From an uncultured Acidobacteriota bacterium (lineage in GTDB: Bacteria > Acidobacteriota > Terriglobia > Acidiferrales > UBA7541): a stretch of 40,000 nucleotides of DNA. A program made the position numbers and the translations under genes. The stretch is taken from assembly GCA_963751295.1 (NCBI GenBank), contig CAVVUA010000004.1, positions 231,000 through 270,999 on the forward strand, read 5' to 3'. The notes below the pieces were generated by a model. It ran no database searches. It saw nothing but the letters and a program-made list of their open reading frames with translations, and had not been told where the DNA came from. Of the stretch, positions 11,177 to 31,433 are shown one piece after another. The first letter of the stretch is position 1, and each line of letters starts with the position of its first letter.

Positions 11177-11319
11177 GCTGGTTTCGCGAGGATTGTAAAA
11201 CCGCGCGGGCAGGAGCGCCTGTGCTACCAGACACGTGTGTTGCTTGACTTCCACGGCATGCAAAAGCGATGCTACCGCGTCCAAACTGTCGGTGCAGTTG
11301 TGGTTATGGACCGAAATCA

Positions 11320-13692
11320 ATGAGGAACCGAATGCGATTGCGAGTGACTGCGACTTTTCTCCTGTTTCGATTTGCTTTGCTGGCGGCATTATTAGGCTGC
11401 GTTGCGATTTCGTTGGCCGCGCAACAAGCGGATTCCGGGGGGCGGCGGGTTCTCACCGCTGAGGACTACAAGCACGCTGAAAAATTCATGATTTATAACG
11501 TGCGGCCGCTAGTTTTTCATGATGTGCGCGGCAAATGGCTGCCCGATGATCGATATTTGTTCCGCGACACGGGGCCGGACGGCAGCGAATTCATGCTCTT
11601 TGACGCTGCGCATGGCACGCGGCAGCCGGCGTTTGACCAAGCCAAAATTGCTGCTGCGCTCTCCTCGGCATCCGGAGTTTCCTACAGCGCGGCACACTTG
11701 CCGTTTATGACATTTGAGTTTTCTGCGGACGGCAAATCCATTTCGTTTCAGGCGAAGGGCCAGCAGTGGACGTGCGATTCGCAGGGGAGCAAGTGTACCG
11801 CCGAACCTAAGACCTCCAAGGCTGCGGCGGAACGTCCTGAAGAAGAGATTTCGCCTGATGGCAAGAGCGCTGCGTTTATTCGCGACTACAATCTCTGGCT
11901 GCGTGATGTGGCCACCAACAAAGAAACGCAGCTCACGACCGACGGGGTGAAGGACTTCGGCTACGCGACCGATAACGCTGGGTGGATTCACAGCGACCGG
12001 CCGATTTTGTTGTGGTCACCCGATTCCAAAAAGATCGCGACGTTTCAGCAGGACCAACGCGGCGTCGGCGAAATGTATCTTGTGGAAACGAAAGTTGGCC
12101 ATCCGGTGCTCCAGGCGTGGAAGTATCCGCTGCCGGGCGATGATGTCGTCACTACTATTCAGCGTGTGGTGATTGATCTGGACGCGCACAAAGTGATCCG
12201 TTTGCAACTTCCGCCGGACCAGCACCGGACGACTCTTTGCGACGACGTGGAATGCCGGGGTAGCGATTGGGACGATGTGGAGTGGAGCCCGGACGGCGCG
12301 CACCTGGCGTTCGTTTCGACCTCTCGCGACCATAAACGTGAGCAGTTGCGTGTAGCCGATGTTGTGACTGGCGCCGTGCGCGACGTTCTCGAAGAAACGG
12401 TCGCCACGCAGTACGAATCCGGCTGGGGCCGGGTGAACTGGCGCTACTTGCCTCTATCGAACGAAGTCATTTGGTTTTCCGAGCGCGATAATTGGGGCCA
12501 CTTGTATCTTTACGATCTGGCGACGGGCAAACTGAAAAACCAGATCACTTCCGGCGATTGGGTGGTCACGCAACTGCTGCGCGTGGATGAAAAAAATCGC
12601 ATGCTTTATTTTGTCGGGCTGGGACGCGAGAAAAGCGAGAACCCTTACTTCGCGCATCTCTATCGCATCGGATTCGACGGCAAAAATCTCACATTACTGA
12701 CTCCCGAAAGCGGGAATCACGAAGTCAGCTTCTCAACCTCGGGGCGGTATTTTTTCGACAGCTACTCGAAGCCTGACGTGCCCGCCGTGGCTGTGGTGCG
12801 CGATGACGCCGGCAAGTTGATCTCGACCGTTGCGAAGACGGATATCTCTAAGCTTCTTGCGGCTGGATGGCAGCCACCGGTTCCTGTGACCGTGAAAGCG
12901 CGCGACGGAGTTACCTACCTGTACGGATTGATGTACAAACCGACAAAACTCGATTCGACAAAGAAATATCCGATTGTGAATCGAATTTACCCAGGGCCGC
13001 AGGGCGGTAGCGTCGGTTACTGGGGTTTCGCGCCGGGGCGCGGCGATGCGCAGTCTCTTGCCGAACTCGGTTTCGTCGTGGTGGAAATCGAGGGCATGGG
13101 CAATCCATTGCGGTCGAAGAAATTCCACGACTTCTACTATGGAAACATGGGCGACAACACTTTGCCCGACCAGATTGCCGGCATGAAGGAGCTGGCGCAA
13201 AAATATCCGTGGATCGATATCGAGCGCGCGGGGATTTTCGGCCACTCAGGCGGAGGATACGCTACTGCCGACGCGATGTTTCGCTATCCGGACTTTTTCA
13301 AAGTGGGCATCTCGGAATCCGGGAACCATGACAATCGGGAATATGAGGATGATTGGGGAGAACGGTATCAAGGATTGCTAGTTAAGAATGCGGATGGCAC
13401 TACCAATTATGATGACCAGGCTAATCAGCACTTGGCCAAAAACCTGAAGGGACATTTGCTGCTGGCACACGGGACGTTGGATGACAATGTGCCGCCGTAC
13501 AATACGCTGCTGGTGGTGGACGAACTCATCAAGGCCAACAAGGATTTTGATCTTTTGCTTTTGCCCAACCAGCATCACGGATACGGGAGCGCGACGCTTT
13601 ACATGACGCGGCGGCGGTGGGACTACTTCGTGCGCTATTTGCTTGGCGCGGAGCCGCCGCATGAATATGAGCTGAATCCGCCTAAACCGTAG
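11320..13692 (+). CDS. S9 family peptidase (DPP-IV/prolyl oligopeptidase type), secreted
   Basis: Nucleophile motif GIFGHSGGGY, HGTLDDNVP and HHGY. DPP-IV-like propeller region. Start placed at MRNRMRLRVTATFLLF (signal-like); the upstream part of the track ORF looks non-coding. Confidence 0.9.
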   Translation: MRNRMRLRVTATFLLFRFALLAALLGCVAISLAAQQADSGGRRVLTAEDYKHAEKFMIYNVRPLVFHDVRGKWLPDDRYLFRDTGPDGSEFMLFDAAHGTRQPAFDQAKIAAALSSASGVSYSAAHLPFMTFEFSADGKSISFQAKGQQWTCDSQGSKCTAEPKTSKAAAERPEEEISPDGKSAAFIRDYNLWLRDVATNKETQLTTDGVKDFGYATDNAGWIHSDRPILLWSPDSKKIATFQQDQRGVGEMYLVETKVGHPVLQAWKYPLPGDDVVTTIQRVVIDLDAHKVIRLQLPPDQHRTTLCDDVECRGSDWDDVEWSPDGAHLAFVSTSRDHKREQLRVADVVTGAVRDVLEETVATQYESGWGRVNWRYLPLSNEVIWFSERDNWGHLYLYDLATGKLKNQITSGDWVVTQLLRVDEKNRMLYFVGLGREKSENPYFAHLYRIGFDGKNLTLLTPESGNHEVSFSTSGRYFFDSYSKPDVPAVAVVRDDAGKLISTVAKTDISKLLAAGWQPPVPVTVKARDGVTYLYGLMYKPTKLDSTKKYPIVNRIYPGPQGGSVGYWGFAPGRGDAQSLAELGFVVVEIEGMGNPLRSKKFHDFYYGNMGDNTLPDQIAGMKELAQKYPWIDIERAGIFGHSGGGYATADAMFRYPDFFKVGISESGNHDNREYEDDWGERYQGLLVKNADGTTNYDDQANQHLAKNLKGHLLLAHGTLDDNVPPYNTLLVVDELIKANKDFDLLLLPNQHHGYGSATLYMTRRRWDYFVRYLLGAEPPHEYELNPPKP

Positions 13693-13901
13693 TCAATTCC
13701 AAGACAGTTCGGGCGCGATAAGTGGGCTTCTTGGGAAGGGTGTGCCCGCGTATTTTTGCAGGAGTGGGAGGAAAATAACTTGCGGAACGGTTTGTTTGAG
13801 AGGCAGTGCGGAATGGGGATTTTAACACAGAGGACACAGAGTTCACGGAGGGACGAATAGGTCGTTAGCAAAGAGAGCTGACAGTTTGCACTGCGTTCGA
13901 G

Positions 13902-14570
13902 CTATTCGTGGAGGACAACGGTCAGCAGGGATTTGTTGACCTTGATTTTGCCGTTGTATTCGATGAAGCCGAGTTTTCTGAATTTGTTCATGAAGAAATT
14001 GACGCGGGAACGCGTGGTGCCGATCATTTCGGCCAAGGTTTCTTGTGAGACTTGGGGGAGGCTCCGGTCCGGCCGATCTTGTTCCCCATAGCGGGCGAGC
14101 AAGAGAAGAGTTCGGGCCAGACGCTTCTCGCTGGAGTTGAAGAGTTGATCGACCAGGTCTTCTTCCACGCGAATGTTGTGGGCGAGCATGTAGCCGATAA
14201 AACGGTCCGATAACTCGTGCTCTTCATGGAGCACACGAAGCATTTCGTTCTTGTTGATAACAAGAACGGTGGTGGGAGCAATGGAAGTCGCCGTCGCCAT
14301 GCGGAGCGCTTGGCCTGCCATGCAGCCTTCGCCAAAAAAGTCTGTCGGGCCAAACATCGCGACGACAGCTTCTTTGCCCATGCCATTCACAACGGAGAGT
14401 TTTACGCCGCCCCTCTGAATGTACATAACGGTATTCGCACCGTCTCCCTGGCTAAAAATGGATTCACCTCGCTTAAATTCAGCGACTTTTCTTGATACTC
14501 CAGCGGTATCGAGAAAAGCCTGTGGGTCGAAGGGACGGGGAATCCCGGCGTTGGAGCTTTTTTTCTTCAT
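13902..14570 (-). CDS. Crp/Fnr family transcriptional regulator
   Basis: 222 aa. cNMP-binding fold (FGEGCMAG...RMATATS) and a C-terminal HTH (SQETLAEMIGTTRSRVNFFMNKFRKLGFI). Confidence 0.9.
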   Translation of the reverse strand: MKKKSSNAGIPRPFDPQAFLDTAGVSRKVAEFKRGESIFSQGDGANTVMYIQRGGVKLSVVNGMGKEAVVAMFGPTDFFGEGCMAGQALRMATATSIAPTTVLVINKNEMLRVLHEEHELSDRFIGYMLAHNIRVEEDLVDQLFNSSEKRLARTLLLLARYGEQDRPDRSLPQVSQETLAEMIGTTRSRVNFFMNKFRKLGFIEYNGKIKVNKSLLTVVLHE

Positions 14571-14843
14571 GGAGGCTAGGAGATGCAGCCTCTTCGAGGC
14601 TGCTTAGAGTACAAACCCACAATACCAAGGACTCCGCCGCCAGACTGTGCAAAAGTGAACACTGTCGATTTAGAGTGATTGATTCGGTGGGGTTAAATGC
14701 ACATTCTGCAGCCAGTGCTTCCCACAACGGCCACAGACGCTTCGATAAGGGCGTTCCCAAAGCTGAGACTTGGCGCAAATTAGCGCCTTAACAGCTAAAT
14801 CATAAAACCACGATCTGTTCTCCCCTCGTTAGCCCGAGCCACG

Positions 14844-15038
14844 CTATGGAAGGCGTACAGGGTCGGACTGCACTGGGCTGGGGTTAGCGTTGAGAGACCA
14901 ACGAAAAAAGCGATGATCACAGGTCAAACAACGGAATGGACGAACGAAGAGGACTGCGAGAAAACGAGATTCGAGAATTCCGCGACGCTTGGAGCGATGG
15001 ATTCGGTGACTTTGGCATACAGGACAATTCGTGGACAT
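14844..15038 (-). CDS. small zinc-ribbon protein
   Basis: 64 aa with CPVC...CLTC pairs. AAGGAGGG lies 6 nt upstream of the ATG. Confidence 0.5.
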   Translation of the reverse strand: MSTNCPVCQSHRIHRSKRRGILESRFLAVLFVRPFRCLTCDHRFFRWSLNANPSPVQSDPVRLP

Positions 15039-15261
15039 GGTGGCCCTCCTTGCTGAGATTGCAGACGCACCAGTACCTGGGCCGCATAGGAACTTGTGCG
15101 TGAACCGTTGAAAACGCTTCGAAATTTAGCAAAGTGAGCAGAGGAGGTACTGTCTAAAAGCGGACAGACTCGGAGATTAATTCCTACTAAGGTTTGGGTG
15201 TGCCAATCACTTATGCCGAGGTCTCCCTCCGCAGGGCGGCTCAAGTGGGGTTCGAAGGGTA

Positions 15262-16686
15262 TTGTTTATGTTTCCCCTGTCCGGAAGCCAACCCAGACTA
15301 AACGATCACGACGGTGCCAACCGGCGTGCGGCCGCAAATAGGTGGCAGTCCCTGCGTGTTCTGTTTGTTCACCGCGATGCTGATGAGGTCGATTCTTGTT
15401 TGCAGGAACTGAAAAGGGCGGAATTCGCAGTTCACGCGGATATCGTCTTGACCGTGGGCCAATGCGTCGAACAACTGCGCAAAGAACCGTTTGACCTGAT
15501 TGTGGCGGAATATCCAAGCCCCAACTGGAGCGGATCCGAGGCATTGGAGGCGCTTCGCCAAATGGTGCGGAGCGTACCTTTAGTGTTCGTGACAACCAGT
15601 TTGCGAAGAGAGTGCAGGGCGGCATTAGCAGCAAATGGCGCTTACGATTTTATCGAACCCGAACATATGGAGCACTTGCCAATGGCAGCTCGACGAGCGC
15701 TCGAAGAAAAGAAGCTACGTGAAGAGCTGGCGCAGGCCGAAAAAACCAGCGCAAGTGCGGAGGCGCGCTATCGCGCACTCGTTGAAAATCCTACTTACGG
15801 AATCTGCCGCGTGGACGCGAAGGGAAAATTCGGTTATGCCAATGCAGCGTTTCTAAGCATGCTGGGGTATACGTCCAGAGAGGAATTCCTGAAAACAGAT
15901 TTTGCGAGGGACGTGATTCGAGATGGTGAGGTGCGCGAGCGCTGGAGTGAGTGCCTAAAGGAAGGGGCTGAGATCGAAGGGTTCGAGATGGAGTGCTTGC
16001 GGAAAGACGGCGCAACGGTAAAGGTGCGAATGAGCGGGCGCGCGGTCTACACAGGAAACAGAGCGTTCGACGGCTACGAGATAATCGTGGGAGACGTAAC
16101 GGAACAGCAGGCGCGGGAAGTGCGACTTAGAGAGCAGGCGGAGAGTGATTCGCTGACGGGATTGGCGAATCACAGGCGTCTTTTCGAGGTGCTGCACACG
16201 GAAATCAGCCGCTCAAAACGCACAGGGCGCGAATTCGCGCTGATGCTGCTCGATGTAGACCAGTTCAAGAATATCAATGACAAATACGGTCACCTGGTGG
16301 GAGACCGTGCGCTTTGCCGGCTTACGAATGTATTGCGAAGCTGCTGCCGTTCTATCGACACAGCTGCAAGACAAGGCGGAGATGAATTTGCGCTGGTGTT
16401 GCCGGAAACGGGAGCGGCTGATGCGGCGCTGGTGGGCCAGCGAATCTGCGAGCTTCTCGCCAAAGACGTGGAAGAGCCAGTACTTTCGGTAAGCGTGGGA
16501 GTGGCAGCCTATCCTAGGGATGCAGAATCCGTTGGACCGCTGCTGTATTCGGCGGACGCCGCGTTGTACGAGATGAAGGGCAAACGAATAAGGTTGGTGT
16601 CGGTTGGGCACACACTACAAGCGTCGATGAGAGCCGAACAACGCGAAGTTGGTAAGTCTGGGGAGCAAGCAAACCGCGAGTCGTAA
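15262..16686 (+). CDS. response-regulator receiver / PAS / GGDEF diguanylate cyclase
   Basis: REC-like N-terminus (VLFVHRDADE...DLIVAEYPSPNWSG), a PAS region, and a GGDEF domain with the intact motif RQGGDEFALVL. The start could be the TTG at 15262 or the ATG at 15268. Confidence 0.9.
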   Translation: MFMFPLSGSQPRLNDHDGANRRAAANRWQSLRVLFVHRDADEVDSCLQELKRAEFAVHADIVLTVGQCVEQLRKEPFDLIVAEYPSPNWSGSEALEALRQMVRSVPLVFVTTSLRRECRAALAANGAYDFIEPEHMEHLPMAARRALEEKKLREELAQAEKTSASAEARYRALVENPTYGICRVDAKGKFGYANAAFLSMLGYTSREEFLKTDFARDVIRDGEVRERWSECLKEGAEIEGFEMECLRKDGATVKVRMSGRAVYTGNRAFDGYEIIVGDVTEQQAREVRLREQAESDSLTGLANHRRLFEVLHTEISRSKRTGREFALMLLDVDQFKNINDKYGHLVGDRALCRLTNVLRSCCRSIDTAARQGGDEFALVLPETGAADAALVGQRICELLAKDVEEPVLSVSVGVAAYPRDAESVGPLLYSADAALYEMKGKRIRLVSVGHTLQASMRAEQREVGKSGEQANRES

Positions 16687-16731
16687 CAGGCTCAGGGGTG
16701 GGCCAGGAGACAGAATTAGGAGAACAGGCGT

Positions 16732-17238
16732 ATGAGAGAAGACGGACCCCGACGCAAATGGCCCACAAGGCATTTGCCCTTGCATGTGCGTGGCACCGGC
16801 AAGAAGCAGACGGATTTGACGGGAGAAAAGAGGATCCGGGACCTGATCTCGATAGGGGCGCCGCTCGCCGAGGTTCTGAACAACTTGTGCACTGCCATCG
16901 ATCTTCAGATTGGAAACATTGTGTCGGTCATGTTGCTGCCGGATGACATGGAGCGTGATTTTAAAACGATTGCCAGGGGGGCGCTGCAGTTTGGCCTGCA
17001 TCTGTATTGGTCCGCGGACATCCCTTTGCGGGACGAAGACGTCTTGGGGTCCTTCGAGATGTACTGCTGCGTTCCACGGACACCCACGGCATTTGAATTG
17101 AAGCTGATCCATCGAGCGACACATTTGGCAGCATTGGCTATTCGACGCTACTACCGTGATGAGGACCTTAGCAGCGCATGCAGTGCATGGAAACGTGCGC
17201 TGGAGAGACGGTCAAACGAAGCGGCTCAAGTCAACTGA
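16732..17238 (+). CDS. GAF-domain protein
   Basis: 168 aa. AGGAG lies 9 nt upstream of the ATG. The GAF-like core is LIHRATHLAALAI at the C-terminal helix. Confidence 0.6.
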   Translation: MREDGPRRKWPTRHLPLHVRGTGKKQTDLTGEKRIRDLISIGAPLAEVLNNLCTAIDLQIGNIVSVMLLPDDMERDFKTIARGALQFGLHLYWSADIPLRDEDVLGSFEMYCCVPRTPTAFELKLIHRATHLAALAIRRYYRDEDLSSACSAWKRALERRSNEAAQVN

Positions 17239-19719: not shown

Positions 19720-20775
19720 TCAGAAGAGGCGAGGCTGGCGCTTGGGTAGTTCCTTGCCGAAATATTCGTAGGCACGGGCAGTGGCTACGCGGCCGCGCTG
19801 CGTGCGGTCAATTAAACCGATCTGCATGAGATAGGGCTCGTAGATTTCTTCGATGGCGTCTTCTTCTTCGGATAGGGCAGCGGCGAGCGTTCCGAGGCCT
19901 ACGGGGCCACCTCCGTATTTATCGAGAAGTGCCAGCATGAGGTTGCGGTCGACTTCGTCGAGACCGCTTTCGTCCACGCCGAGCATGGCTAGGGCTTCCT
20001 GCGCTACGGCACGGGTGATACGGCCAGCTGCACGAACTTCGGCAAAATCGCGCGAGCGACGGAGGAGACGATTTGCAATGCGCGGTGTGCCTCGGCAGCG
20101 ACGTGCAATTTCTTCGGCACCGCCGTCGTCCAACAGGATATTCAGGATTTTGGCGGAGCGGTGAATGATTATGAGCAAATCCTCGGGCTCGTAGAAATCG
20201 AGACGGTGGACGATGCCGAAGCGCGATCGCAAAGGCGCTGTGATAAGGCCGGCGCGCGTTGTGGCACCGATTAGCGTGAAGTGACCCAGTTGAAATGGAT
20301 GAATGCGGGCACCGGGGCCCTGGCCGATGATCAAGTCAACGCGAAAATCTTCCATGGCGGGATATAAAATTTCTTCGACCGCAGGTTGAAGGCGGTGAAT
20401 TTCATCCAGAAAGAAAACTTCCTTGCCTTCGAGCGAAGTTAGGATGGCGGTAAGGTCGCCTTTACGCTCAAGGAGCGGGCCAGCACTGGTCTTGATAGGG
20501 ACCTGAAGCTCGTTGGCGATGATTTGGGCCAGAGTGGTTTTTCCGAGGCCGGGTGGGCCGTACAGGAGGACATGATCGAGGGCTTCGCCGCGGCTGCGCG
20601 CGGCTTCGATAGCGATAGAGATATTTTCTTTAACGCGTTTTTGGCCAATGTATTCGTCGAGGCGCTTGGGGCGGACGCTTGCTTCAATGCGGGCGTCTTC
20701 GTCATAGGAAGCGCCGGAGACGATTCTGTGTTGTTCGTTTCGGTCCATGGATCGTTTTGCGCTAGTGTCGGGCAT
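19720..20775 (-). CDS. ruvB: Holliday junction branch migration helicase RuvB
   Basis: [11 protein letters not shown], Walker [10 protein letters not shown], Walker B FLDEIHRL and a C-terminal winged helix. Confidence 0.97.
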
Positions 20776-20834: not shown

Positions 20835-21458
20835 TTATGCCCCTGCATGAGTTGTGCGACCTTTGGGCGCGGCTAGCGATTGCAAAGCTGCACGCAACAA
20901 TTTCTCGAAATTCGTTGTGCCAGCTTCGCGTTTGGCTTCGCTTGCCGCGGTTTCAGCGGCGCGCGCATCGTAGCCTAGATTGATTAACGCGGAGATTACA
21001 TCGGCTTCTGCGCCTGCGGGGGAGGCGACAGCTGGTTTCTGGGTTTCTAACACGACGGCTTCAAGCTTATCTTTTAGCTCAACGACCATGCGCTCAGCGG
21101 TTTTGCGGCCGACGCCGGGAATTTTCGTTAAGCGGCCCAAATCGTTGCCACGAATGGCAGGGACGAGTTCTTCAACACTCATGCCAGAGAGAATTTTCAA
21201 GGCCAAAGAAGGGCCGACGCCGGAAGCAGAGAGGAGCAACTCAAAAAGATGCTTCTCACGGGAGGAAACAAAGCCGTAGAGGGCGAGAGCGTCCTCGCGA
21301 ACATGCGTGTGAATGAGAAGGGTGACTTCGGTGTGGAGTTCACCGAGCGCGGCGTAAGAGGAAAGGGGGACTTGAACAAGGTAGCCTACGCCGCCGACAT
21401 CGACGAGCACTTGATTCGGGCGTTTTTCGGCGAGGCGTCCACGGAGTTGGCCAATCAT
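20835..21458 (-). CDS. ruvA: Holliday junction DNA-binding protein RuvA
   Basis: MIGQLRGRL...VDVGGVGY, HhH motifs (LTKIPGVGRKTAERM) and C-terminal domain III. Lies directly upstream of ruvB. Confidence 0.95.
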   Translation of the reverse strand: MIGQLRGRLAEKRPNQVLVDVGGVGYLVQVPLSSYAALGELHTEVTLLIHTHVREDALALYGFVSSREKHLFELLLSASGVGPSLALKILSGMSVEELVPAIRGNDLGRLTKIPGVGRKTAERMVVELKDKLEAVVLETQKPAVASPAGAEADVISALINLGYDARAAETAASEAKREAGTTNFEKLLRAALQSLAAPKGRTTHAGA

Positions 21459-21466
21459 GGAAGGCC

Positions 21467-21495
21467 AGTATTGCCGCCTTTTCTTCGCCTGTCAA
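21467..21495 (-). promoter_or_regulatory. candidate sigma70-like promoter of ruvA (TTGACA-17 nt-AATACT), with the -10 ending 8 nt before the ATG
   Basis: The minus strand reads TTGACAggcgaagaaaaggcggcAATACTggccttccATG. Five of the six -35 bases lie inside the left copy of the 14-bp target duplication. Confidence 0.3.
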
Positions 21496-21504
21496 CGCGG
21501 TTGG
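21491..21504. repeat. left copy of the 14-bp target-site duplication GTCAACGCGGTTGG
   Basis: Identical 14-mer at 36767-36780. Each copy directly abuts the outer end of a terminal inverted repeat. Confidence 0.85.
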
Positions 21505-21587
21505 GGGTTAAGTTACAGGCGGGGGAAAAGTGATACACCCCTGAAACGCAGTCTTTCTCAATTGAGCGCCGTTGAAATGGAAGTGCG
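21505..21587 (+). repeat. left terminal inverted repeat (36-bp perfect core 21505-21540, second conserved block 21564-21587)
   Basis: GGGTTAAGTTACAGGCGGGGGAAAAGTGATACACCC is identical to the reverse complement of 36731-36766. AGCGCCGTTGAAATGGAA(G/A)TGCG is also shared. The ORF track shows the same peptide, LSYRRGKSDTP, at both ends. Confidence 0.92.
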
Positions 21588-21842
21588 TGGGTTCTCAGTT
21601 AGTAGATTGAGATTTGTGCGGGAATGCGCATGGTGCTAATCACGGATGAGAATGAAAGACTTCGTCCGAAAAGGGTTGGGCACAAACGGAGAAAACCTCG
21701 TGAACGCAGGTCACTGCGACCGTCTCTCTTCCGTATCTTGTTGAAGGTGTTCGACTAAGATTATCAAGTGCACGGGTTTTGCGCATCCGGGAGCAACAAC
21801 GAGCTCCGCGGGGTAATATAAACGGTTTCGTGAGGTAGGCAA

Positions 21843-23108
21843 ATGCCGTGGTATGCATACGGCTATTTCGTCAGGCTGCCCGATCGCCGTATCGTTCATG
21901 CCGGCCATGATTTTGGTCCAACGCTCGATCTTTACACGGTAGGCAGCAGCCTCGGCGTGAAAGGCGATACGGAGGGATTCGTAATTGGCATACTGAAGGG
22001 GGAGCCGGCAAAATTGAGCGGTGGCTACGACGTTTTTGTGCTTGTGGAGCAGAGACGCGTCCGCGAGAAAGGATCTTCACCACCGCCAGCTTGGGACTTC
22101 TTCCAAAGAGATGAGGGGCGCGAATTTGTCGAGACGTTGATGGTTGGCCCTGCAAGGCTTGTTAGCAGGCCTCAAATTCAGGCGACTTTCCAGGGCCAGA
22201 AATTCCGGGCCGTAGGTAAGAATCTCTATCGGCGACCTCTGAATGAGAGTTTCTATGATTTCGAGGTAAATCATCTTCTGTGGCTACTCGGCGAGGACTG
22301 GTACAACGCCGAGATGGGGAAACATCCTGACGAGCGGCATGTCATTTTGAAATGGCGTGCAGAGCGCAACGAGCAGCTACGGAGATATCAAGATCCCAAG
22401 GACCCAGCCGGGCTAGTGCGCGCACCTGTCACTGGCGGCATGAGGGCTCTTCAAGTTTTAGCTGACGACCTCTACCAATTGGCTCACGCGCTTGAACCGC
22501 CCAGGAAGATTCTCGCCCGGCTCCGCGACATCAAGCATTTCCAGGGAGCAAGGTACGAGATCTTGACCGCTAGTCTGTTTGCTCGTTGTGGTTTTGAAGT
22601 TGAGTTTATAGAGGACAGCTCGCAAAGGAATCCTGAATTTATCGCTCAGAAAGACGGCGAAAGGATAGCGGTAGAGGCCAAGAGTAGGCATCGTGCCGGC
22701 GTCCTTAATGAGAGGGGCGACTTTCGGAAAGACGCAGCCGCAGAGATTCGTCGGTTGTACGAGGACGCAGCAGGTCAAAATCCTGGAGCATTTCCGTTTT
22801 TGATTTTCATCGATGTGAACCTGCCGTTGACGCCAGAGGTCCCCCCGCTAGAAAAGCAGTGGATCATTGAGGCGATGCAGGTGTTCGAGCACCGCGAACA
22901 AGAAGGCCTCCAAAATAGGGACACGGTTCTGATTCTCACCAATTTTGGCTGGCATTTTTCACGAGAGGAAGGCGCGCCGCCTGGGGAAAACTTTTGGGCA
23001 CGAGTCGAGCACCCCCAATATCCTGTCCGGATGAGTACTCTGGATCTTTTGGCTCGCGCACTGGGTGAATACGGAAAAGTAGTTGATGAGGAAGAACGAC
23101 GCGGTTAG
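21843..23108 (+). CDS. hypothetical protein with a C-terminal PD-(D/E)xK nuclease-like motif (casposon cargo)
   Basis: 421-aa ORF. GARYEILTASLFARCGFEVEFIEDSSQRNPEFIAQKDGERIAVEAKSR fits an E...PE...ExK restriction-endonuclease-like core. Confidence 0.55.
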   Translation: MPWYAYGYFVRLPDRRIVHAGHDFGPTLDLYTVGSSLGVKGDTEGFVIGILKGEPAKLSGGYDVFVLVEQRRVREKGSSPPPAWDFFQRDEGREFVETLMVGPARLVSRPQIQATFQGQKFRAVGKNLYRRPLNESFYDFEVNHLLWLLGEDWYNAEMGKHPDERHVILKWRAERNEQLRRYQDPKDPAGLVRAPVTGGMRALQVLADDLYQLAHALEPPRKILARLRDIKHFQGARYEILTASLFARCGFEVEFIEDSSQRNPEFIAQKDGERIAVEAKSRHRAGVLNERGDFRKDAAAEIRRLYEDAAGQNPGAFPFLIFIDVNLPLTPEVPPLEKQWIIEAMQVFEHREQEGLQNRDTVLILTNFGWHFSREEGAPPGENFWARVEHPQYPVRMSTLDLLARALGEYGKVVDEEERRG

Positions 23109-23241
23109 CGATTAGTTAACTGCAAGAATTGAATTCGGATTGAACGCCGGTCCCCGCAACCGTCGCTCGGCCAGCCATCTCGAACGAGCAGCAGGGTTTG
23201 TTTTTCAATTGCACTTGCTTTGCACAGATCGCTCCGTCTGA

Positions 23242-24021
23242 TCAGTATCCCTTGGGAGCAATTATGACTTTCACCGCGAATCCATCTTCAATTCTGCTGA
23301 GGTCGTCCTCGATACCGCGCGGATTTGTTACCCGTCCCTCAGGATCGTAGACGAAACAGATGAGTCGTTTGCAGCCTTGGTGGGCCCGATATCGGGCGAT
23401 ATCCTCGATGAGTTGGCTGCCGATCTCTTTTGCGGCTAATCCTACGCGAGTTTTCTTGGTCTCAATCACATTATCCGGTGGCAAAAAAAAATCCATACGT
23501 GACGATTTACCTGCGTAGCTGGGTGTCCACTCCTCAGTCCTTATGTCTTCGAAAAAGACCCGGAGCATCGCGTGCATGAGATCTTGAACGTCATACTCGT
23601 CAGCGACATCGATGCTCGGCCGGTTATCATGTCGGTCTCTAATTTGCATCGCTACTGTGTGAAATCGCATACACAAGAGTTCGATGGCATCGGTATGCTG
23701 AGGGAGAACGGGAACCGCAGGGGTGATGATGAGTTCGTCAGAAACATCCTTTGCGCCGGGCTCCCCCCGATACCAATCCAAGTGTCCCTGGAAAGCGAAA
23801 AGACCAGTGTAACCGCTGGCAAATTCGGTTCGCCCTTCCTCCGTCTGAACGATTTGGACGCGCTCTATCTGGTCGGGCATTATCGTGCGCCCACCCAGAA
23901 TGATCGGTTGCCAACTCTTATAGGGAACGAGTACTTGCCGCTCTAGTTGCTCACGCGTGATGCTGAGCCTCACTTCGAGAGGTGGAATCTTGGTCGTATG
24001 AATCACAACGTGGAAATTCAT
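23242..24021 (-). CDS. PD-(D/E)xK nuclease-like protein (casposon cargo, downstream of cas1 on the same strand)
   Basis: 259-aa ORF. DEYDVQDLMHAMLRVFFEDIRTEEWTPSYAGKSSRMDFFLPPDNVIETKK gives a D/E...D...ExK arrangement. Confidence 0.6.
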   Translation of the reverse strand: MNFHVVIHTTKIPPLEVRLSITREQLERQVLVPYKSWQPIILGGRTIMPDQIERVQIVQTEEGRTEFASGYTGLFAFQGHLDWYRGEPGAKDVSDELIITPAVPVLPQHTDAIELLCMRFHTVAMQIRDRHDNRPSIDVADEYDVQDLMHAMLRVFFEDIRTEEWTPSYAGKSSRMDFFLPPDNVIETKKTRVGLAAKEIGSQLIEDIARYRAHQGCKRLICFVYDPEGRVTNPRGIEDDLSRIEDGFAVKVIIAPKGY

Positions 24022-24178
24022 AATCGTCCCAGTATCTGCCCGACAGTTCGCGCAGAGCAGACATGGATTCTAGTCCTGGTTTCCGACTACGCACAAGAAT
24101 AGAAGAGCGACCTTGGGGTGAACTCAGGTTCACCGAACCGTTGCTCACTCTCAAGTGACCCTGGACGACTTCCGGGCG

Positions 24179-25396
24179 TTACGCAGAAACGCAGTTACCG
24201 CAGACCGGACTGGTGGAAAGTCGAATCTGGCCACACACTCGACAAAGCATAGGCCTCGCACGTTTAGTATCGCCCACACCTCCGTTGAGTTTTTCTCTGC
24301 CCTCGCTTTTGTGAGCCTGCGTCAACCGAGTCGCCGGAACTTGAGTCCGCACCTGTCGCATTTTCGAATCCCAAATGCATCGGGCAATCCACTCGGCAAA
24401 GGCGCTAACGGCGGTGCGCCACATTGTCGCTGTTTCCGACAGGATTTCAGCAAACGATCCCATAAGCCGACAATTGCCGTCGCGCTGTTCGAAGAACCAC
24501 TCACGCCTTAATTGTTCTTTAAGCAGTAGATCGAGAACTAGACAGTCAACCTTCGGTCGGATGGGTTCCATGAGGTCGCAAGCAAGACTGTCGCGACTGC
24601 GCAAATCGTTGTGCAGAACTCCAATACCTGGATCTAGCCCGAGTGTGGCAAGTGCCAATCGAGACTCGGACTCCAACACCGCATATAAGTAGTTCAAAAT
24701 TGCGTTGGCTGGATTGACAGCCAGTCGCGGCGAGTTGGTAAGAGGCGATATGCGGCTCCCAAATCGCCGCCAGTGTTCTGGAATTTTCGACGAATCTGAC
24801 TTGCTGAAATTCACAGGAAGCTCTCGCATTGCACTCCAATAGGCTTTAGCGCCTTTGGCTTCCCATCGCCTGATTTCCTCTTTTGATTTTGCAGTGCCGA
24901 CTAGCTTCCGTGCAGCTGCGATGTCAGATGAGCAGGGCGACTCCCTGAAGTAAGTGTTTATGATTCTTTCTTGCGCCAAGAGTTTTTCTGAAATCAATTC
25001 TCGGGCAATCTTTAGAGCAATGCCGGACTCTTGCGCAAGACTTTGGGATCGTCGGAGCCGCGCATCAGATGGGTTCACCGGGCCGGTTGTCGCCAAGACT
25101 TTTCCGTCTCGCTCAAGCAAAACGAAACTTGCGTCTTGGTCTGCGAGCCATCTAAGGGCCGCAAGCGAAACCGATCCGTCCGATCCAATAGCCACGACTC
25201 GCTTAATGCCATGCCTCACTCGGGCAAACCGACCGTAGCGACGCCTTGGCCCAATTCTGTCCTCCAAAATGAGATGGCCGCGGTCAACACACAGACGGGT
25301 GCCATAGCCGTAGAGAGTTACGACGCCACGGTGCGGCGTAATTGGAGTGAAATTGCACTGCGGTCGATCTTGCGGTACGGTCAGCGTAGCTGCCAT
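24179..25396 (-). CDS. cas1: Cas1-family integrase (casposase-like), with a C-terminal CxxC...CxxC zinc-ribbon tail
   Basis: N-terminal beta domain (LILEDRIG..., KRVVAIGSDGSVSLAALRWLADQDASFVLLERDGKV). Catalytic helical domain with WEAKGAKAYW (E), NPANAILNYLYAVLESE and GVLHNDLRSRDSLACDLMEPIRPKVD (H, D/E). The tail is CRVCGQIRLSTSPVCGNC. Confidence 0.9.
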   Translation of the reverse strand: MAATLTVPQDRPQCNFTPITPHRGVVTLYGYGTRLCVDRGHLILEDRIGPRRRYGRFARVRHGIKRVVAIGSDGSVSLAALRWLADQDASFVLLERDGKVLATTGPVNPSDARLRRSQSLAQESGIALKIARELISEKLLAQERIINTYFRESPCSSDIAAARKLVGTAKSKEEIRRWEAKGAKAYWSAMRELPVNFSKSDSSKIPEHWRRFGSRISPLTNSPRLAVNPANAILNYLYAVLESESRLALATLGLDPGIGVLHNDLRSRDSLACDLMEPIRPKVDCLVLDLLLKEQLRREWFFEQRDGNCRLMGSFAEILSETATMWRTAVSAFAEWIARCIWDSKMRQVRTQVPATRLTQAHKSEGREKLNGGVGDTKRARPMLCRVCGQIRLSTSPVCGNCVSA

Positions 25397-25794
25397 CGGA
25401 GTTCAAGCTCCCTTGGTGGTTAGGGCTTGTCGTCTGCGCAAACAGACGGCAGGCCCGTTTATTTCCTTCATTTTACCATCTAATGCCACTTCGGGCACAG
25501 GCGCGCACTTGACAGCCCAGTGGTGCACGGTGCAAATTCTATCTAGCAGCTGGGAACTAGTAGATATGCCTACGGCGGTCCCAAACCGCCCGAAGGGTAC
25601 AGTCCTCACTAGACCCGCGCTTCGCGATTCCAGTAGGAAGTAGCACTGGGCGTATCGGAATCAATCAGTATGCCCTGCATCTTGCATCGTGCAGGGAACG
25701 CAAAAGATTGATTGAGGCGAGGGAGAAAAAGGGACCTGGGCTCAGGCTGAGCAAACGAACTCCTGCAGATGACATCACTCTTGGAGTGTGTCAA

Positions 25795-26598
25795 ATGCAG
25801 GAATCGATTTTGCTTCGCAGTAGAGTTCTCTTCAGCCGTCGAGAGTTCTCAACGCTCACCGGCTTATCACTCAGAACAATCGCAAAGCTGATTGCCTCGC
25901 GAGAATTGAAGTCTATTCTCGTGGGACGGCGGCGGCTGATTCCACGTTCGGAGTTGGCTCGATTCATCAGGCGTGACCATCGCATCGGTGCGCCATCAAC
26001 GGCGGCTCTGCGACTCAGATCTGGCAACCGCAAGATTCGAAAGCCGCTCAAGAAACGCAAGACCCGTGGTGGTAATGGCCGTCGCGTAAATCAGAAACGT
26101 AGAAGCCCCCGCAAACGCGGTCGAGTGAGGCCGCAGAGAATCGGGCCAGCCATCACAGACCCACGCGTCGCCCGGGGTTTGGGGCTAATGCGTAGGGAGG
26201 GAGTGTCAGCTTCCGAGGCGGCTCGCCGAGAGCGAATGAAATTAGAGACTTTTCGGCGACGAGCGGGAAGATATCTTTATCGATCTGGCCCAGGCAAGCC
26301 TTGGAAAGCACGCAGCGAGGACCAACTGGCCTTCTCGATGACCGTCCTAACCAGCCGTGGGCCACTCGACGCTGTTATTCACAATTCGCGCGAACGGAGG
26401 CTGCTCCATCGATATGAAGTTGCCCTCAGAATGTTTCGAGCCGGTGAAGATGGAGTGGAAGCAGCACTCAAAGCGTTCAAAGGTAAGTCTGTTGGCGGAC
26501 ACAAGCTCATTACCGATACAAAACTGCTCATCGAATTAGAGGAAGCTGGGCTGCTCGATTTCGGCAGCCTCTATACTTCGTTCGGAGCACGGTCATGA
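25795..26598 (+). CDS. HTH (excisionase/MerR-like) DNA-binding protein with a highly basic linker; first gene of the polymerase operon
   Basis: FSTLTGLSLRTIAKLIASRELKSILVGRRRLIPRSELARFI is an HTH_17-like motif. It is followed by RKIRKPLKKRKTRGGNGRRVNQKRRSPRKRGR. The stop overlaps the next start (ATGA). Confidence 0.7.
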   Translation: MQESILLRSRVLFSRREFSTLTGLSLRTIAKLIASRELKSILVGRRRLIPRSELARFIRRDHRIGAPSTAALRLRSGNRKIRKPLKKRKTRGGNGRRVNQKRRSPRKRGRVRPQRIGPAITDPRVARGLGLMRREGVSASEAARRERMKLETFRRRAGRYLYRSGPGKPWKARSEDQLAFSMTVLTSRGPLDAVIHNSRERRLLHRYEVALRMFRAGEDGVEAALKAFKGKSVGGHKLITDTKLLIELEEAGLLDFGSLYTSFGARS

Positions 26599-26888
26599 GA
26601 TCGCGCGACGGGTCACAGCCTATCTGCGTGATTTGTGGCAAGGACGCTACGTTGGAATTCAACCATGCCGCGGGTAAGAAACATATACCGTGGTTCAAAA
26701 TTCCCTTTTGCGAGCAGCATCATCATCAGTTTCATCGCCTACTAGAAAGTGTGGGCCTTAACCTTCGCTACACACCCAATAAGTTGAAACGCTTGGTAAT
26801 TGCGGCACTTGCCCTGACTATAGCTCTATGGATGGTGCTTCAAGCCCTCGGGGAAACCGTCTCGCATCTTCCCGAAAAGGACACTTAG
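26595..26888 (+). CDS. small HNH-like nuclease-motif protein with a C-terminal TM helix
   Basis: CVICGKDATLEFNHAAGKKH...PFCEQHHHQFH resembles a CxxC...HNH...CxxH beta-beta-alpha-Me finger. Translationally coupled to the upstream gene. Confidence 0.5.
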   Translation: MRSRDGSQPICVICGKDATLEFNHAAGKKHIPWFKIPFCEQHHHQFHRLLESVGLNLRYTPNKLKRLVIAALALTIALWMVLQALGETVSHLPEKDT

Positions 26889-26902
26889 CCACCAAAAGAG
26901 AT

Positions 26903-29141
26903 ATGTCTGAGCAGGAATCTCCCGAAATCTTCGTGCGGGCGCATACAATCGTCCGCACGAAGAAGAACGCGAGGGATCGCAGATGGTCGCCAAAATGGCC
27001 CAAGTACTGCCTCATCTTCGATACCGAAACCACTCTTGATCCCACTCAGAAACTTAATTTTGGTGCCTACCGCCGATGCCAACGCGTGGGTGATAAATAT
27101 ATATGTGTGGCCGAAGGAATTTTCTATAAGGATGATCTTCCTGAACGCAAATTAAAACTCGTACAGCGATACAAGAGCAACCCTAAGACTCTTCCATCGA
27201 TTGAAGTGTTTCCCGCGCAAATGGCGCTCGGTCTGATGAGTCGCTCTGCATTTGTCAGTCGAATCTTTTGGAAATCCGTGCGGAAAGGGGAGCTGATTGT
27301 TGGTTTTAATTTGCCGTTCGACCTATCGCGATTGGCGATCAAAGCGACTGCCGGAAAAAAGGGTGACTGGTCCTTAGCACTCTCCCAGCTTTGGGAGAAT
27401 CCCAAGACAGGGCGAATCGTACCAAACCCGAAGCGACCCCGAATTATTGTTGACGCTCAAAACAGCAAGATGGCTTTTATCAAACTAGGCAGCATTTTGC
27501 ACAAGAAGGAGTGGCCAAAAGAAGGTCGCTTCCTTGATCTGCGAACTCTCGGCTGGGCGTTAAGGAATGTGTCCTTTAGCTTGAAAGTTGCCTGTAAGAA
27601 GTTCCACGTCAAAGGGAAACCAGATCACAAGCCCTCAGGAGAGATCAATTCCGAAGAGATGGAGTACTGTCGAGGTGATGTGGCGGCCACGCACCGCTTG
27701 CTAAATGCGATGATGGCGGAATTTAATCGGAATCCTCTTGATTTGCATCCCGACAAAGCCTACTCACCTGCTTCGATTGCCAAAGACTATTTGACGGAAA
27801 TGGGAATCAAGCAGCCCAAGGATCATTTCGAAGTCCCTAACAAGACTTTGGGAATTGCAATGCAAAGTTATTATGGCGGTCGGGCAGAGTGCCGGATCAG
27901 AAAAACTCCCGTTCCAGTGATCCACACTGACTTCACCAGCCAATATCCAACTGTCAACGCACTCTTGGGAAACTGGAATGTGCTTACTTCCAGCTCTGTC
28001 CGGTTTGTAAATTGCAAAGCATCTGCCAAAAAGCTGCTTTCGAAAGTATCTCTGAAAAACATGTTTGATCCGGGTTTCTGGAAACAGCTCTCGTTCTTTG
28101 CGCTTGTAAAGCCCAAGAACGACATTCTTCCAGTGAGAACGATTTACAAAGGAAGAACGCAGAATATCGGACTTAATTATCTGACTTCTGACAAACCCAT
28201 TTGGTATGCGGGCCCCGATCTCATAGCTTCCAAAATCCTCACCAAGAGAGCTCCCAAAATCCTAAAAGCGCTCCGCATGGTGCCACACGGTCGACAATTA
28301 AATTTGCAATCTCGAAATCTACAGGGAATGGTGGAAATAAATCCTGCAAAGGATGATTTCTATCGGAAGGTAATCGAACAGAGAATCTCCCATAAAGCAC
28401 AAAACAAGCCTTTGGCTGACTTTCTCAAAGTACTGGCAAACTCGGGAAGTTATGGCTTGTTCGTGGAGGTAAATACCGAAACGAAGAAAAAAGAAACGAA
28501 AGTGCCTTATTTTTCCGGCGAGAAAAAAGGAAGAATCCCCTCTACCTACGTAGAAAAGCCAGGCGCTTGGTATTTTCCTCCGGTGGCATCTCTCATTACA
28601 TCTGGTGGCAGGTTATTACTCGCGATGCTGGAAAAGAGTGTCGATGAAAGTAGGGGAAGCTACTTGTTCTGCGATACTGATTCGCTTTGCATCGTGGGGA
28701 CGGAAACGGGGAGTTTTGTTCCTTGCGTAGGGGGGAAGCATTTTTCCAAAGGAAAACCAGGCTTCAGAGCACTGTCACTGCGGGAAGTAAGATCAATCGC
28801 AAGTAAATTCAGAAAACTAAACCCGTACAATCCTTCCCTCGTAACTGAAATCCTCAAGATCGAAGACATCAACTTCTTGGATGACGATCCCAAGAAACGA
28901 TTCCGCCAGCTTTTTGGCTACGCGATTTCCGCGAAAAGATATGCGCTTTACACAAGATCGGGAAGTGACATTCAAATTGAAAAAGCCAGCGGGCACGGTC
29001 TCGGATATCTCTGTGCGCCAAAGGAAAGAGAAGATGATGAGAAAACTGATGAGGAAACAGATGAGGATGAAGCGCCGCAGTGGGTAACGGAAGCTTGGGA
29101 CTTTCTTTTGAGGAAAGAACTGGGATTGCACTCCAAGGAAC
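26903..29141 (+). pseudogene. family-B DNA polymerase, N-terminal ~746 codons (exonuclease and polymerase core), truncated by an IS3 insertion
   Basis: ExoI CLIFDTETT, ExoII GFNLPFDLSRL, ExoIII YCRGDVAATH, SYYGGR, motif A HTDFTSQYPTV, motif B KVLANSGSYGLF, motif C LFCDTDSLCI, KxY AISAKRYALY. The track ORF 26828..29272 continues into IS sequence. Confidence 0.9.
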
Positions 29142-29201
29142 TGTCTTGCCTCAGCTGGAACCGGAGAAGGCGTTCTTCCGTTAAGATAACGGAGAGGGCG
29201 C

Positions 29202-29510
29202 ATGAGAAAAGGGCGAAAGCACTACACCGGAGAAGAGAAGGTTGCCATCCTGAGACGGCACTTGTTGGATAAGGTGCCGGTTTCTGATCTCTGTGAGGAG
29301 CATGGACTGCAGCCGACCGTGTTCTACCGCTGGCAGAAAGAGTTCTTCGAGAATGGCGCGGCCGCCTTCCAGGGCAAGGGCCGGCAGGACCACCAAGGTG
29401 AACAACAACGGATCGAGTTCCTGGAAAAGAAGATCCACACCAAAGACGAGGTGCTGGCTGAATTGATGGCCGAGCACATCGCCTTAAAAAAAAGTCTTGG
29501 GGAGCTCTGA
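29202..29510 (+). CDS. IS3-family transposase OrfA (HTH)
   Basis: MRKGRKHYTGEEKVAILRRHLLDKVPVSDLCEEHGLQPTVFYRWQKEF is typical of IS3 OrfA. Confidence 0.9.
   Translation: MRKGRKHYTGEEKVAILRRHLLDKVPVSDLCEEHGLQPTVFYRWQKEFFENGAAAFQGKGRQDHQGEQQRIEFLEKKIHTKDEVLAELMAEHIALKKSLGEL
29486..29494 (+). other. programmed -1 ribosomal frameshift site (A AAA AAA AG) joining OrfA to OrfB
   Basis: A run of eight A followed by G. A shift from the orfA frame to -1 reads ...KKSWGALTKVWVPPDV, which merges with the OrfB N-terminus. Confidence 0.75.
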
Positions 29511-29515
29511 CCAAA

Positions 29516-30547
29516 GTGTGGGTGCCGCCCGATGTGCGGGACCAGGTGGTGGATTTCGTCCGGTGCTGGTCGGAAAAAACAGAGATCGGTACCGGACGAT
29601 TCATCCACTGGCTGGGCGTACGACCCAGCAAGTTCTACGACTGGCGGGAGCGCTATGGGCACGTCAATGAGCACAACGGTTGGGTTCCTCGCGATTTCTG
29701 GCTACAACCGTGGGAGAAGCAAGCCATCATCGGCTTCCACCGGGAACATCCCTTGGAAGGCTATCGACGACTGACGTTCATGATGCTGGACGCCGATGTT
29801 GTGGCCGTCAGCCCCTCCAGCGTTTGGCGAGTGCTCCAACAAGCCGGATTGCTCTCCCGATGGAAGGGTAAGCCTTCGCGCAAGGGGAGCGGTTTCGAGC
29901 AACCACCGCACGCGCACCAGCATTGGCACATCGATGTTTCCTACATCAACGTGAGCGGCACGTTCTATTACCTGTGCAGCATTCTGGATGGCTATAGCCG
30001 TTCGATCGTTCATTGGGATCTGCGGGAATCGATGACCGAAGCGGAGATCGAAGTCATTTTGCAACGAGCGCGGGAGAAATATCCGGAAGCGAAACCGCGG
30101 ATCATCTCCGACAACGGACCACAGTTTATTGCCAGGGATTTCAAGGAATTCATTCGCATCGCGGGGATGACCCACGTGCGAACCTCGCCCGGCTATCCGC
30201 AATCGAACGGGAAACTTGAACGCTGGCACAAATCGCTAAAAGCGGAGTGCATCAGGCCAGGTACACCGTTGACGAGAGAAGACGCGGTGCGTTTGATTCA
30301 AGCCTACGTGGATCACTACAACACCGTGCGCCTGCACAGCGCTATCGGCTATGTGACGCCGCACGATATGCTCGCCGGGAGACAGGCTGAGATCCACGCG
30401 GCACGCGATCGCAAGCTGGAGGAAGCGCGTCACCAACGGCAGTTCCGGCGGGAGGCCAGATCGCTGCTTGCACATTCTTCGAACACGACTACAATGACCT
30501 CGCCAGGTGAAACAGAAGCGGGCTCTGCAGGGATGCAACCATGCTGA
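29516..30547 (+). CDS. IS3-family transposase OrfB (DDE/rve integrase core)
   Basis: HWHIDVSYI (D), IISDNGPQFIA (D) and PQSNGKLERWHKSLK (E). Frame is -1 relative to orfA. Confidence 0.9.
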   Translation: MWVPPDVRDQVVDFVRCWSEKTEIGTGRFIHWLGVRPSKFYDWRERYGHVNEHNGWVPRDFWLQPWEKQAIIGFHREHPLEGYRRLTFMMLDADVVAVSPSSVWRVLQQAGLLSRWKGKPSRKGSGFEQPPHAHQHWHIDVSYINVSGTFYYLCSILDGYSRSIVHWDLRESMTEAEIEVILQRAREKYPEAKPRIISDNGPQFIARDFKEFIRIAGMTHVRTSPGYPQSNGKLERWHKSLKAECIRPGTPLTREDAVRLIQAYVDHYNTVRLHSAIGYVTPHDMLAGRQAEIHAARDRKLEEARHQRQFRREARSLLAHSSNTTTMTSPGETEAGSAGMQPC

Positions 30548-30735
30548 GGGATAACCTGGTAGGACTCATCGAGCCGATGCGAATCAGCGCGGGAGTTGAT
30601 CCTCTCGCGCTGAGCATCCAGAAACAGGCATCGGACGATAGATCCTCATGCCTTGAAAATCCCCGTCCCGAATGGGCGGAATCTTCACTAACGGAAAACG
30701 TCACCTCTCCATTTCAGGCTGAGCCAGCACAGAAC

Positions 30736-31427: not shown

Positions 31428-31433
31428 TGGTAC

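Follow-up and report, generated by a model that had tools for sequence, protein, structure and literature searches.

A probable bacterial casposon at the ruvA promoter of an acidobacterium and the apparent use of -35 boxes as integration targets by its family

We analyzed a 40,000-nt stretch of DNA (hereafter the window; positions 231,000 to 270,999 of contig CAVVUA010000004.1, assembly GCA_963751295.1) from an uncultured member of the Acidobacteriota. The window carries a 15,262-bp element (21505-36766) that lies between the genes ruvA and ruvB on one side and a gene for a 93-amino-acid (93-aa) protein on the other. The element encodes a Cas1 homologue and a family B DNA polymerase (PolB), and it is bracketed by two copies of the 14-mer GTCAACGCGGTTGG. 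Casposons are self-synthesizing transposons moved by a Cas1-family integrase, called a casposase, and the CRISPR adaptation machinery is proposed to descend from them. To our knowledge, casposon mobility and target choice have been studied in only a few archaeal elements. The 90%-identity cluster of the window RuvA includes proteins named Candidatus Acidoferrum or Acidiferrum, and the host appears on this basis to be an Acidoferrum-like acidobacterium. The coordinates of all features are listed in Table 1.

The 14-mer occurs exactly twice in the window, with both copies on the same strand. The next-best match has two mismatches (1680-1693, - strand), and there is no other. GGGTTAAGTTACAGG has one match per strand, at 21505-21519 (+) and 36752-36766 (-), each abutting a 14-mer from the inside. 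The bases immediately outside both 14-mers differ (t/C at one side and G/c at the other); therefore, the duplication is exactly 14 bp. Each arm of the terminal inverted repeat (TIR) has a perfect 36-nt core, TG(G)AAACGC with a 1-nt indel, a divergent 15-nt spacer, and a second conserved block, AGCGCCGTTGAAATGGAA(G/A)TGCG, called block 2 here. The arm-to-arm alignment of block 2 scores 22, versus a maximum of 11 in shuffles. A first-pass annotation of this DNA had proposed these exact boundaries, the TIR layout with its GAAACGC block, and a target-site duplication (TSD) lying outside the TIR. All three hold: every part of the layout is present, with the spacer now measured at 15 nt, the exact pair and its differing outer bases mark a duplication, and the breakpoints of the empty alleles described below coincide with the TSD/TIR junctions. 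The small size of the repeat is the one point in favor of an assembly artefact or a coincidental match. By chance, two 14-mers at fixed positions would agree in full with a probability of about 4e-9 (4^-14), no exact copy exists elsewhere in the window, and identical junctions recur in independently assembled empty, tandem, and two filled alleles. We regard the chance of either as virtually negligible.

Next, we looked for other alleles of this site among metagenome contigs encoding the identical RuvA protein and the identical 93-aa neighbor. The first-pass annotation had predicted an empty site, ...ttcttcgcctGTCAACGCGGTTGGcgcttagaaaatggagag..., and had suggested a search of related metagenomes for it. 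The sequence was found base for base, with a single 14-mer, in three contigs (L001, L002, and L004) in which ruvA and the 93-aa gene are directly adjacent. A further contig (L005) begins within the same uninterrupted site. The four contigs with the empty site each come from a different sample. Alignments of the window to the empty contigs break at 21504 and 36764-36767. The flanks are 99.85% identical to the window in L004 and 97.9-99.7% identical in L001 and L002, so close as to indicate strains of one species or close relatives.

The same site is also filled in other samples. A second filled allele (sample ERZ25039522) is 99.96-100% identical to the window copy. It does not have window positions 29142-30731, and it has an extra 2,487 bp near 35934 that encodes an integrase and an IS91-type transposase. 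A partial copy of the casposon (L008) also does not have 29142-30731. The filled alleles differ from the window through nested insertions only. Furthermore, a related strain (L088 and L089; flank 97.7% identical) has two other elements at the same site with the same 14-mer between them. One, casposon X, has a Cas1 that is 89% identical to that of the window and lies in the opposite orientation. The other, element Y (L088 13686-19998), is 6.3 kb long and lacks both Cas1 and PolB; its TIRs extend over at least 120 nt at ~90% identity. It is bordered by the same 14-mer as the window casposon. Its subterminal regions match window positions 36452-36623 at 82-93% identity, although its termini are of a different TIR type; this combination suggests a non-autonomous or recombinant casposon derivative. 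Since the window element, X, and Y all occupy one 14-bp site, the ruvA site has been hit at least three independent times. Judged from these alleles, the window element is a real and recently mobile casposon.

Two whole contigs of 10,550 bp (L024) and 11,949 bp (L026) consist of perfect terminal inverted repeats (139 bp and 98 bp, respectively) around a Cas1 gene. Their assembly as lone contigs may reflect either multi-copy assembly breaks or a free excised form.

The gene content likewise points to a casposon as defined by the features in PMC4046053: Cas1, PolB, an HNH-like protein, and a helix-turn-helix (HTH) protein are encoded, no CRISPR repeat array was found in the window, and no cas2 was found among the open reading frames (ORFs) scanned. 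The first-pass annotation had attributed the element to its Cas1, and both the Pfam match and the structural match agree. Cas_Cas1 is the only Pfam domain in the protein (residues 31-312). The nearest solved structure is 6OPM, the Methanosarcina mazei casposase (E 7.9e-22), with a CRISPR Cas1 just behind. Across 25 homologues, E179, H262, D274, and E277, the acidic and histidine residues typical of Cas1 enzymes, are invariant, and C385, C388, C399, and C402 are nearly so. These four cysteines form a CxxC...CxxC motif (residues 385-402, window 24179-24260) at the casposase C-terminus, where family 2 casposases carry an HTH domain. Longer Cas1 relatives (~510 aa) bear an additional domain, PF24463.

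Flanking direct repeats are also found in many islands carried by integrases, and the second filled allele contains a phage-integrase-like gene. These two facts would fit an integrative island moved by a tyrosine recombinase, with the 14-mers as attL and attR cores. However, that integrase sits in the 2.5-kb nested insertion that is missing from the window, and the basic element has no recombinase, yet has Cas1, PolB, and TIRs. Additionally, relatives at other sites show different 14-mers of constant length, as in target duplications and unlike a fixed att core. We consider such an island very improbable.

Table 1. Features of the casposon and its insertion site in the window
Feature	Position	Strand	Evidence or remarks
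ruvB, next after ruvA	19720-20775		RuvB domains
ruvA, host gene downstream of target promoter	20835-21458	-	Pfam RuvA_N, HHH_5, RuvA_C
ruvA promoter (predicted)	21467-21495	-	TTGACA 21495-21490, 17-nt spacer, AATACT 21472-21467, 8 nt to ATG
Left TSD copy, promoter-proximal, GTCAACGCGGTTGG	21491-21504	+	Exact repeat, empty alleles
Left TIR	21505-21587	+	Core 21505-21540; lineage-specific block 2 21565-21587
Mrr-like cargo, 421 aa	21843-23108	+	Pfam Mrr_cat E 0.0016, below curated cut-off (weak)
DpnII/MboI-type restriction endonuclease domain cargo	23242-24021	-	PF18742 E 1.9e-52; PADLOC Aga_Helical-REase E 3.8e-30
Cas1 homologue (casposase), 405 aa, intact	24179-25396	-	Pfam Cas_Cas1 E 1e-41
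Accessory DNA-binding protein	25708-26598	+	Basic tail, winged-HTH-like domain; N-terminal HTH_17 (Pfam) in this copy
HNH-like protein, 97 aa	26595-26888	+	CxxC...NH...H motifs (putative HNH)
Family B DNA polymerase gene (polB)	26828-31427	+	DNA_pol_B_2; split into 26828/26903-29141 and 30732-31427
Nested IS3-family element, 1,590 bp	29142-30731	+	orfA 29202-29510, orfB 29516-30547; TG...CA ends; 4-bp duplication GAAC
Nested ORF-less group II intron	32260-33045	-	Rfam RF02012, RF00029
Nested group II intron with reverse transcriptase ORF (34057-35634)	34000-35879	-	RF02005, RF00029; Pfam RVT_1
Right TIR	36683-36766	-	Core 36731-36766; block 2 36683-36705
Right TSD copy, promoter-distal	36767-36780	+	Exact repeat, empty alleles
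Host 93-aa gene	36870-37151	-	Directly upstream of ruvA in empty allele

On the ruvA strand, the site reads CCAACCGCGTTGAC/A-ggcgaagaaaaggcggc-AATACT-ggccttcc-ATG, where the slash marks the edge of the duplication. A consensus scan of the window and of the empty allele finds TTGACA-17-AATACT (L001 9964-9992 in the latter), with 10/12 matches. Over the 800 bp scanned in the empty allele, nothing else resembles a promoter. The left 14-mer contains TTGAC, and the edge of the duplication falls at base 5 of the -35 hexamer. The 14-mer is thus predicted to overlap the upstream part of the ruvA promoter, including the -35 hexamer, which the first-pass annotation had not noticed. Upstream, the 93-aa gene of the empty allele has a terminator-like hairpin that stops ~8 nt ahead of the 14-mer. 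The promoter-side TSD copy retains the whole promoter, and ruvA should therefore remain expressed. No Shine-Dalgarno sequence fits the 8-nt gap between the -10 hexamer and the ruvA ATG, so the ruvA mRNA is probably leaderless.

We then asked where related elements insert. A scan of species-representative genomes gave 310 loci with Cas1 relatives, the best of them 63% identical to the window Cas1. We retrieved 79 loci, nearly all of them from metagenome-assembled genomes (MAGs) of Acidobacteriota (Terriglobia). Two (L059 and L066) are in MAGs labelled Patescibacteria and Micrarchaeota, which, with all other loci acidobacterial, are probably binning errors. TIR pairs around Cas1 were located in ~35 loci and an exact duplication, nearly always of 14 bp, in ~30. 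When like-oriented, 28 duplications (27 related loci and the window site) end in TTGAC. Of these 28 insertions, 27 have the hexamer TAnnnT after a spacer of 17-18, versus 4.4% of 2,843 control TTGAC sites in the same DNA. With orthologues collapsed, 17 of 18 loci fit, versus 19% of non-coding TTGAC sites with a co-directional gene no more than 200 nt downstream (p = 8e-12). The co-directional genes downstream of the targets include valS (six loci), a gene for a secreted protein (four), the rpmH/rnpA-yidD-yidC operon, tig, nuoB, a thiolase gene, and ruvA. The orientation of Cas1 relative to the promoter is divided 13 versus 15 over the 28 sites; insertion orientation is random.

The 18 non-redundant sites also show which part of the target is conserved. 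Within the duplication, only the TTGAC at one edge is invariant. The first-pass annotation had described the target as a near-palindrome; this feature is incidental, and a palindromic target was rejected because TTGAC is the sole conserved part of the sites. A tRNA gene or structured RNA as the target was rejected as well. ARAGORN found no tRNA gene in the window or in 29 of 30 related loci, and an Rfam search at the target sites returned nothing relevant. The single tRNA (L053, 2807-2883) ends ~80 bp outside the TSD of that element.

For an independent replication, we scanned metagenomes with the TIR core GGGGAAAAGTGATACACC and obtained 120 soil contigs with 117 unique ends. Of these ends, 58 read GTCAA-N9/TIR and 38 read N9-TTGAC/TIR (the slash marks the junction), for a total of 96/117 that fit. 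Among 46 unique GTCAA-type ends, a correctly spaced TAnnnT is present in 29 and nAnnnT in 36. Thirteen GTCAA-type ends with no -10 hexamer adjoin another TIR and are thus tandem junctions. Many related species have also been hit at the ruvA promoter, with differing distal 9-mers. Among metagenome targets, TTCTTGACCC-N17-TACACT in front of the rpmH/rnpA operon is the commonest. It accounts for ~21 ends (for example, L099, L120, L128, L135, L145, L158, L168, and L175). The same target occurs upstream of rnpA-yidD-yidC in L073 (2425-3130), where it is presumably the rpmH operon promoter. Taken as sequence patterns, these sites indicate that targeting of the promoter -35 box is a family-wide property.

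The flanks of the related elements are not alike on their two sides. At 13 of 28 sites, the flank away from the promoter aligns to the TIR terminus of another family member, with scores of 18-33 versus 14 or less in the shuffles of these flanks. The best promoter-side flank scores 15, which is inside the overall shuffle range (up to 16). For the window element itself, the distal flank scored 8, below the shuffles, and the idea of a TIR remnant there was rejected. Two loci (L080 and L081) each contain the duplication in three exact copies. In both, a complete Cas1 element adjoins the promoter, and a remnant of 2.9 kb or 1.3 kb lies further out. This pattern fits a requirement for the promoter flank in recognition, with only the promoter-side copy being re-used.

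Taken together, we consider it very probable that 21505-36766 is a bacterial casposon at the ruvA promoter and that its family reads TTGAC plus a downstream sigma-70-type promoter and stacks on the promoter side. Published casposase work describes 14-15-bp duplications, recognition of the leader plus the border, and a ruler for the second cut (PMC6614799, PMC8464041). By analogy with such biochemistry (PMC6614799, PMC8464041, PMC6977970), the two 3' ends of the element, bearing the 36-nt TIRs, would join the two target strands at points 14 bp apart, and gap repair would then leave the direct repeat GTCAACGCGGTTGG. One cut would fall after base 5 of the -35 hexamer (TTGAC^A) and the other 14 bp upstream. 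The element accordingly has the upstream gene's terminator on one side and the intact promoter of ruvA on the other. In the family as a whole, TTGAC at the future duplication edge and a -10 hexamer 17-18 bp further on would be recognized, as at the leader/duplication border in the same three papers, while a 14-bp ruler of the kind described there would place the second cut. The remaining 9 bp would be free. Insertion proceeds in either orientation. The promoter-side copy of the duplication would stay a valid target, so that new elements would stack there and older ones would be pushed away. Candidates for the promoter reader are the casposase with its C-terminal 4-Cys motif, the winged-HTH-like accessory protein, and promoter-bound RNA polymerase.

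The main alternative for the targeting step is a casposase that reads TTGAC and a 14-bp ruler and nothing else. The association with promoters would then arise later, through loss of insertions elsewhere and survival of harmless ones just ahead of a promoter. TTGAC is indeed the one part of the target that never varies, the -10 hexamers differ in both sequence and spacing (17 or 18 nt), and an insertion with a terminator on one side and a promoter on the other is inherently neutral. However, a spaced -10 hexamer is present at only 19% of comparable non-coding TTGAC sites versus 17 of the 18 targets. Furthermore, the distal TTGAC copies of stacked arrays, which have no -10 hexamer, were not seen re-used ahead of the promoter-side copy, and selection alone does not obviously favor real promoters over other intergenic TTGAC sites. 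We think that recognition of TTGAC alone is unlikely, although it deserves to be kept in mind.

Several observations count against recognition of a promoter by the family. Three of ~33 related elements break the rule. One (L009, 1526-15641) has no TTGAC or other recognizable motif and a 16-bp repeat, one (L018, element 2937-16746) has TTGAC immediately outside the duplication, a shift of 5 nt, and one (L057, 1349-16288) has TTGCT followed by a TATACA-like hexamer. In the metagenome set, 21/117 ends misfit, many of them one-mismatch variants. The -10 hexamer of the window itself, AATACT, fits nAnnnT and not TAnnnT. Orthologous sites in different species are not independent events, which leaves 18 distinct loci, and the promoter function of the targets is predicted from matches to the consensus. 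Finally, the argument for polarity presumes that degraded elements are the older ones.

The first-pass annotation had also taken the bipartite TIR as a sign of two protein-binding sites per end, which is not supported as stated. The information content over 113 unique TIR ends is high at positions 1-36 and zero at 37-130 (family consensus GGGnTAGGTTACAGGGCGGGGAAAAGTGATACACCC). In most relatives, the arms share only a ~35-40-nt core. Only four other ends, plus a single arm of element Y, have block 2 at the corresponding position, and five elements (L097, L136, L140, L173, and L199) have the identical 36-nt core with no block 2. Block 2 as a family-wide TIR module was therefore rejected, and we keep it as a feature of a sub-lineage, within which it may be functional. 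A stronger claim, that block 2 is a second protein-binding site needed at each end, would account for its near identity between arms although the spacer diverged, for its constant distance in the four other ends and the arm of Y, and for the resemblance of its CGTTGAA to the target CGTTGAC. This resemblance is, on its own, a matter of speculation. Against such a requirement stand the zero conservation past position 36 and the elements with short or block-free ends just described, the 36-nt TIR of the published casposon NitAL212-C1, and the integration of short TIR oligonucleotides by published casposases (PMC6614799). A required second site is doubtful.

The closest published counterpart is NitAL212-C1 of Nitrosomonas sp. 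AL212, a family 3 casposon (Krupovic et al. 2014, PMC4046053; 2016, PMC4779613). It also has a bacterial host, an intergenic site, and a length of ~14 kb, it carries Cas1, PolB, and HNH genes, and nested IS elements have been reported in it. Its 36-nt TIR is GGGGTATGTTAACTTCTCCCAAACGCCGTACACTT, with the shared start GGGGTA...AAA...ACAC, and its TSD is also 14 bp (PMC4046053 supplement). Unlike the sites described here, its TSD, AGCCGGTACTGCCC, does not contain TTGAC. On the features compared (host, intergenic site, and TIR/TSD architecture), the window casposon appears to match family 3. For bacterial (family 3) casposons, the literature gives only an intergenic location (PMC4779613, PMC6614799), and no target rule, empty and filled alleles, or arrays have been reported for them.

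Family 2 casposons of Aciduliprofundum boonei and Methanosarcina mazei (PMC5137440, PMC6614799, PMC6977970, PMC10359463) are alike in their 14-15-bp duplication and in having a motif read at the leader/duplication border with the second cut set by distance. They also form tandem arrays sharing one duplication, which are already known in Methanosarcina, with empty and filled alleles among strains (PMC4779613). However, family 2 is archaeal, inserts mostly at the 3' ends of tRNA genes, and has a casposase with a C-terminal HTH domain, whereas the family described here has a -35 box target, a 4-Cys C-terminus, and no tRNA at 30/31 sites, including the window. Tn7 (TnsD/attTn7) likewise inserts at a fixed distance from a recognized conserved sequence, leaves the gene intact, and accumulates at one site (PMC4046053, PMC4779613). 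Unlike these casposons, it uses a DDE transposase plus TnsD and reads one gene end rather than a generic promoter feature at many loci.

CRISPR acquisition by Cas1-Cas2 is alike in its Cas1-family integrase, in staggered integration that duplicates a fixed-length unit, and in the placement of new units beside a promoter-containing leader, which gives a polar array (PMC6614799). Unlike CRISPR, there is no cas2, CRISPR repeat, or short spacer here; the inserted units are 12-18-kb transposons, and the repeated unit is host promoter DNA of site-specific sequence. It is a tempting idea, which we hold tentatively and just short of calling probable, that this clade uses a sigma-70 promoter as its integration signal, always at the promoter-side copy, and that the resulting polar Cas1 array is a present-day parallel to the proposed transition from casposons to CRISPR arrays. 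The leader would then be a promoter and integration signal in one, and its reader might be RNA polymerase or a casposon DNA-binding protein.

In our literature search, we found no paper on promoter or -35 targeting by casposons and no casposon paper naming Acidobacteriota as the host phylum. The -35 target rule with ordered stacking, the evidence of recent mobility in bacteria, and the size of the acidobacterial population are in no paper that we found. The ruvA alleles amount to population-level proof of recent movement of a bacterial casposon, as the site is empty, filled, differently decorated, and tandemly filled between flanks 98-99.9% identical. The 310 Cas1 relatives in species-representative genomes represent a large, previously undescribed casposon population of soil Acidobacteriota. 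The target rule is simple and testable: base 5 of the -35 hexamer is the last base of the duplication, and the newest element is on the promoter side. If confirmed, it would provide a natural model for the coupling of a promoter-containing leader with a fixed-length repeat before CRISPR, as well as an integrase whose genomic target is short, predictable, and harmless.

The remaining genes of the element were examined for their conservation. Homologues of the accessory protein adjoin Cas1/PolB in related casposons. In its AF2 model, the C-terminal domain is confident, and Foldseek returns local winged-HTH matches, none of them significant. Mimicry of sigma-70 region 4 by this protein was rejected, as there was no Pfam, PDB-sequence, or significant Foldseek match. 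A 94-97-aa gene is found at the same place upstream of PolB as the HNH-like gene in several relatives (L003, L007, L008, and L090-L093); the 97-aa protein has no Pfam HNH match. In L008 and the second filled allele, polB is a single unbroken gene (976-1001 aa), and the IS3 element in the window polB is missing from other casposon copies. Because polB is broken by this insertion, the window copy is probably no longer autonomous, with cas1 intact. The second filled allele shares both group II introns. As these introns, IS3, and the IS91/integrase insertion of that allele show, the casposon acts as a sink for other mobile DNA.

The genes in the cargo position beside Cas1 vary in each relative examined. 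In the window, no methylase was seen, so the DpnII/MboI-type and weak Mrr-like genes are possibly defense cargo. The DpnII/MboI-type protein matches the Argonaute-associated REase models of PADLOC. A related casposon (Cas1 85% identical) encodes a 570-aa cargo protein (L091 6001-7713, - strand; L092 4863-6575, - strand) with two RNA polymerase alpha-CTD domains, one sigma-70 region 4 domain, and one HARE-HTH domain, a striking set for a family aimed at -35 boxes. This protein was considered as a promoter reader and rejected, as it is outside the conserved core and resembles defense proteins (PglW). Its gene lies near DNA methylase and Vsr genes, and the protein matches the PADLOC PglW/MzaA models.

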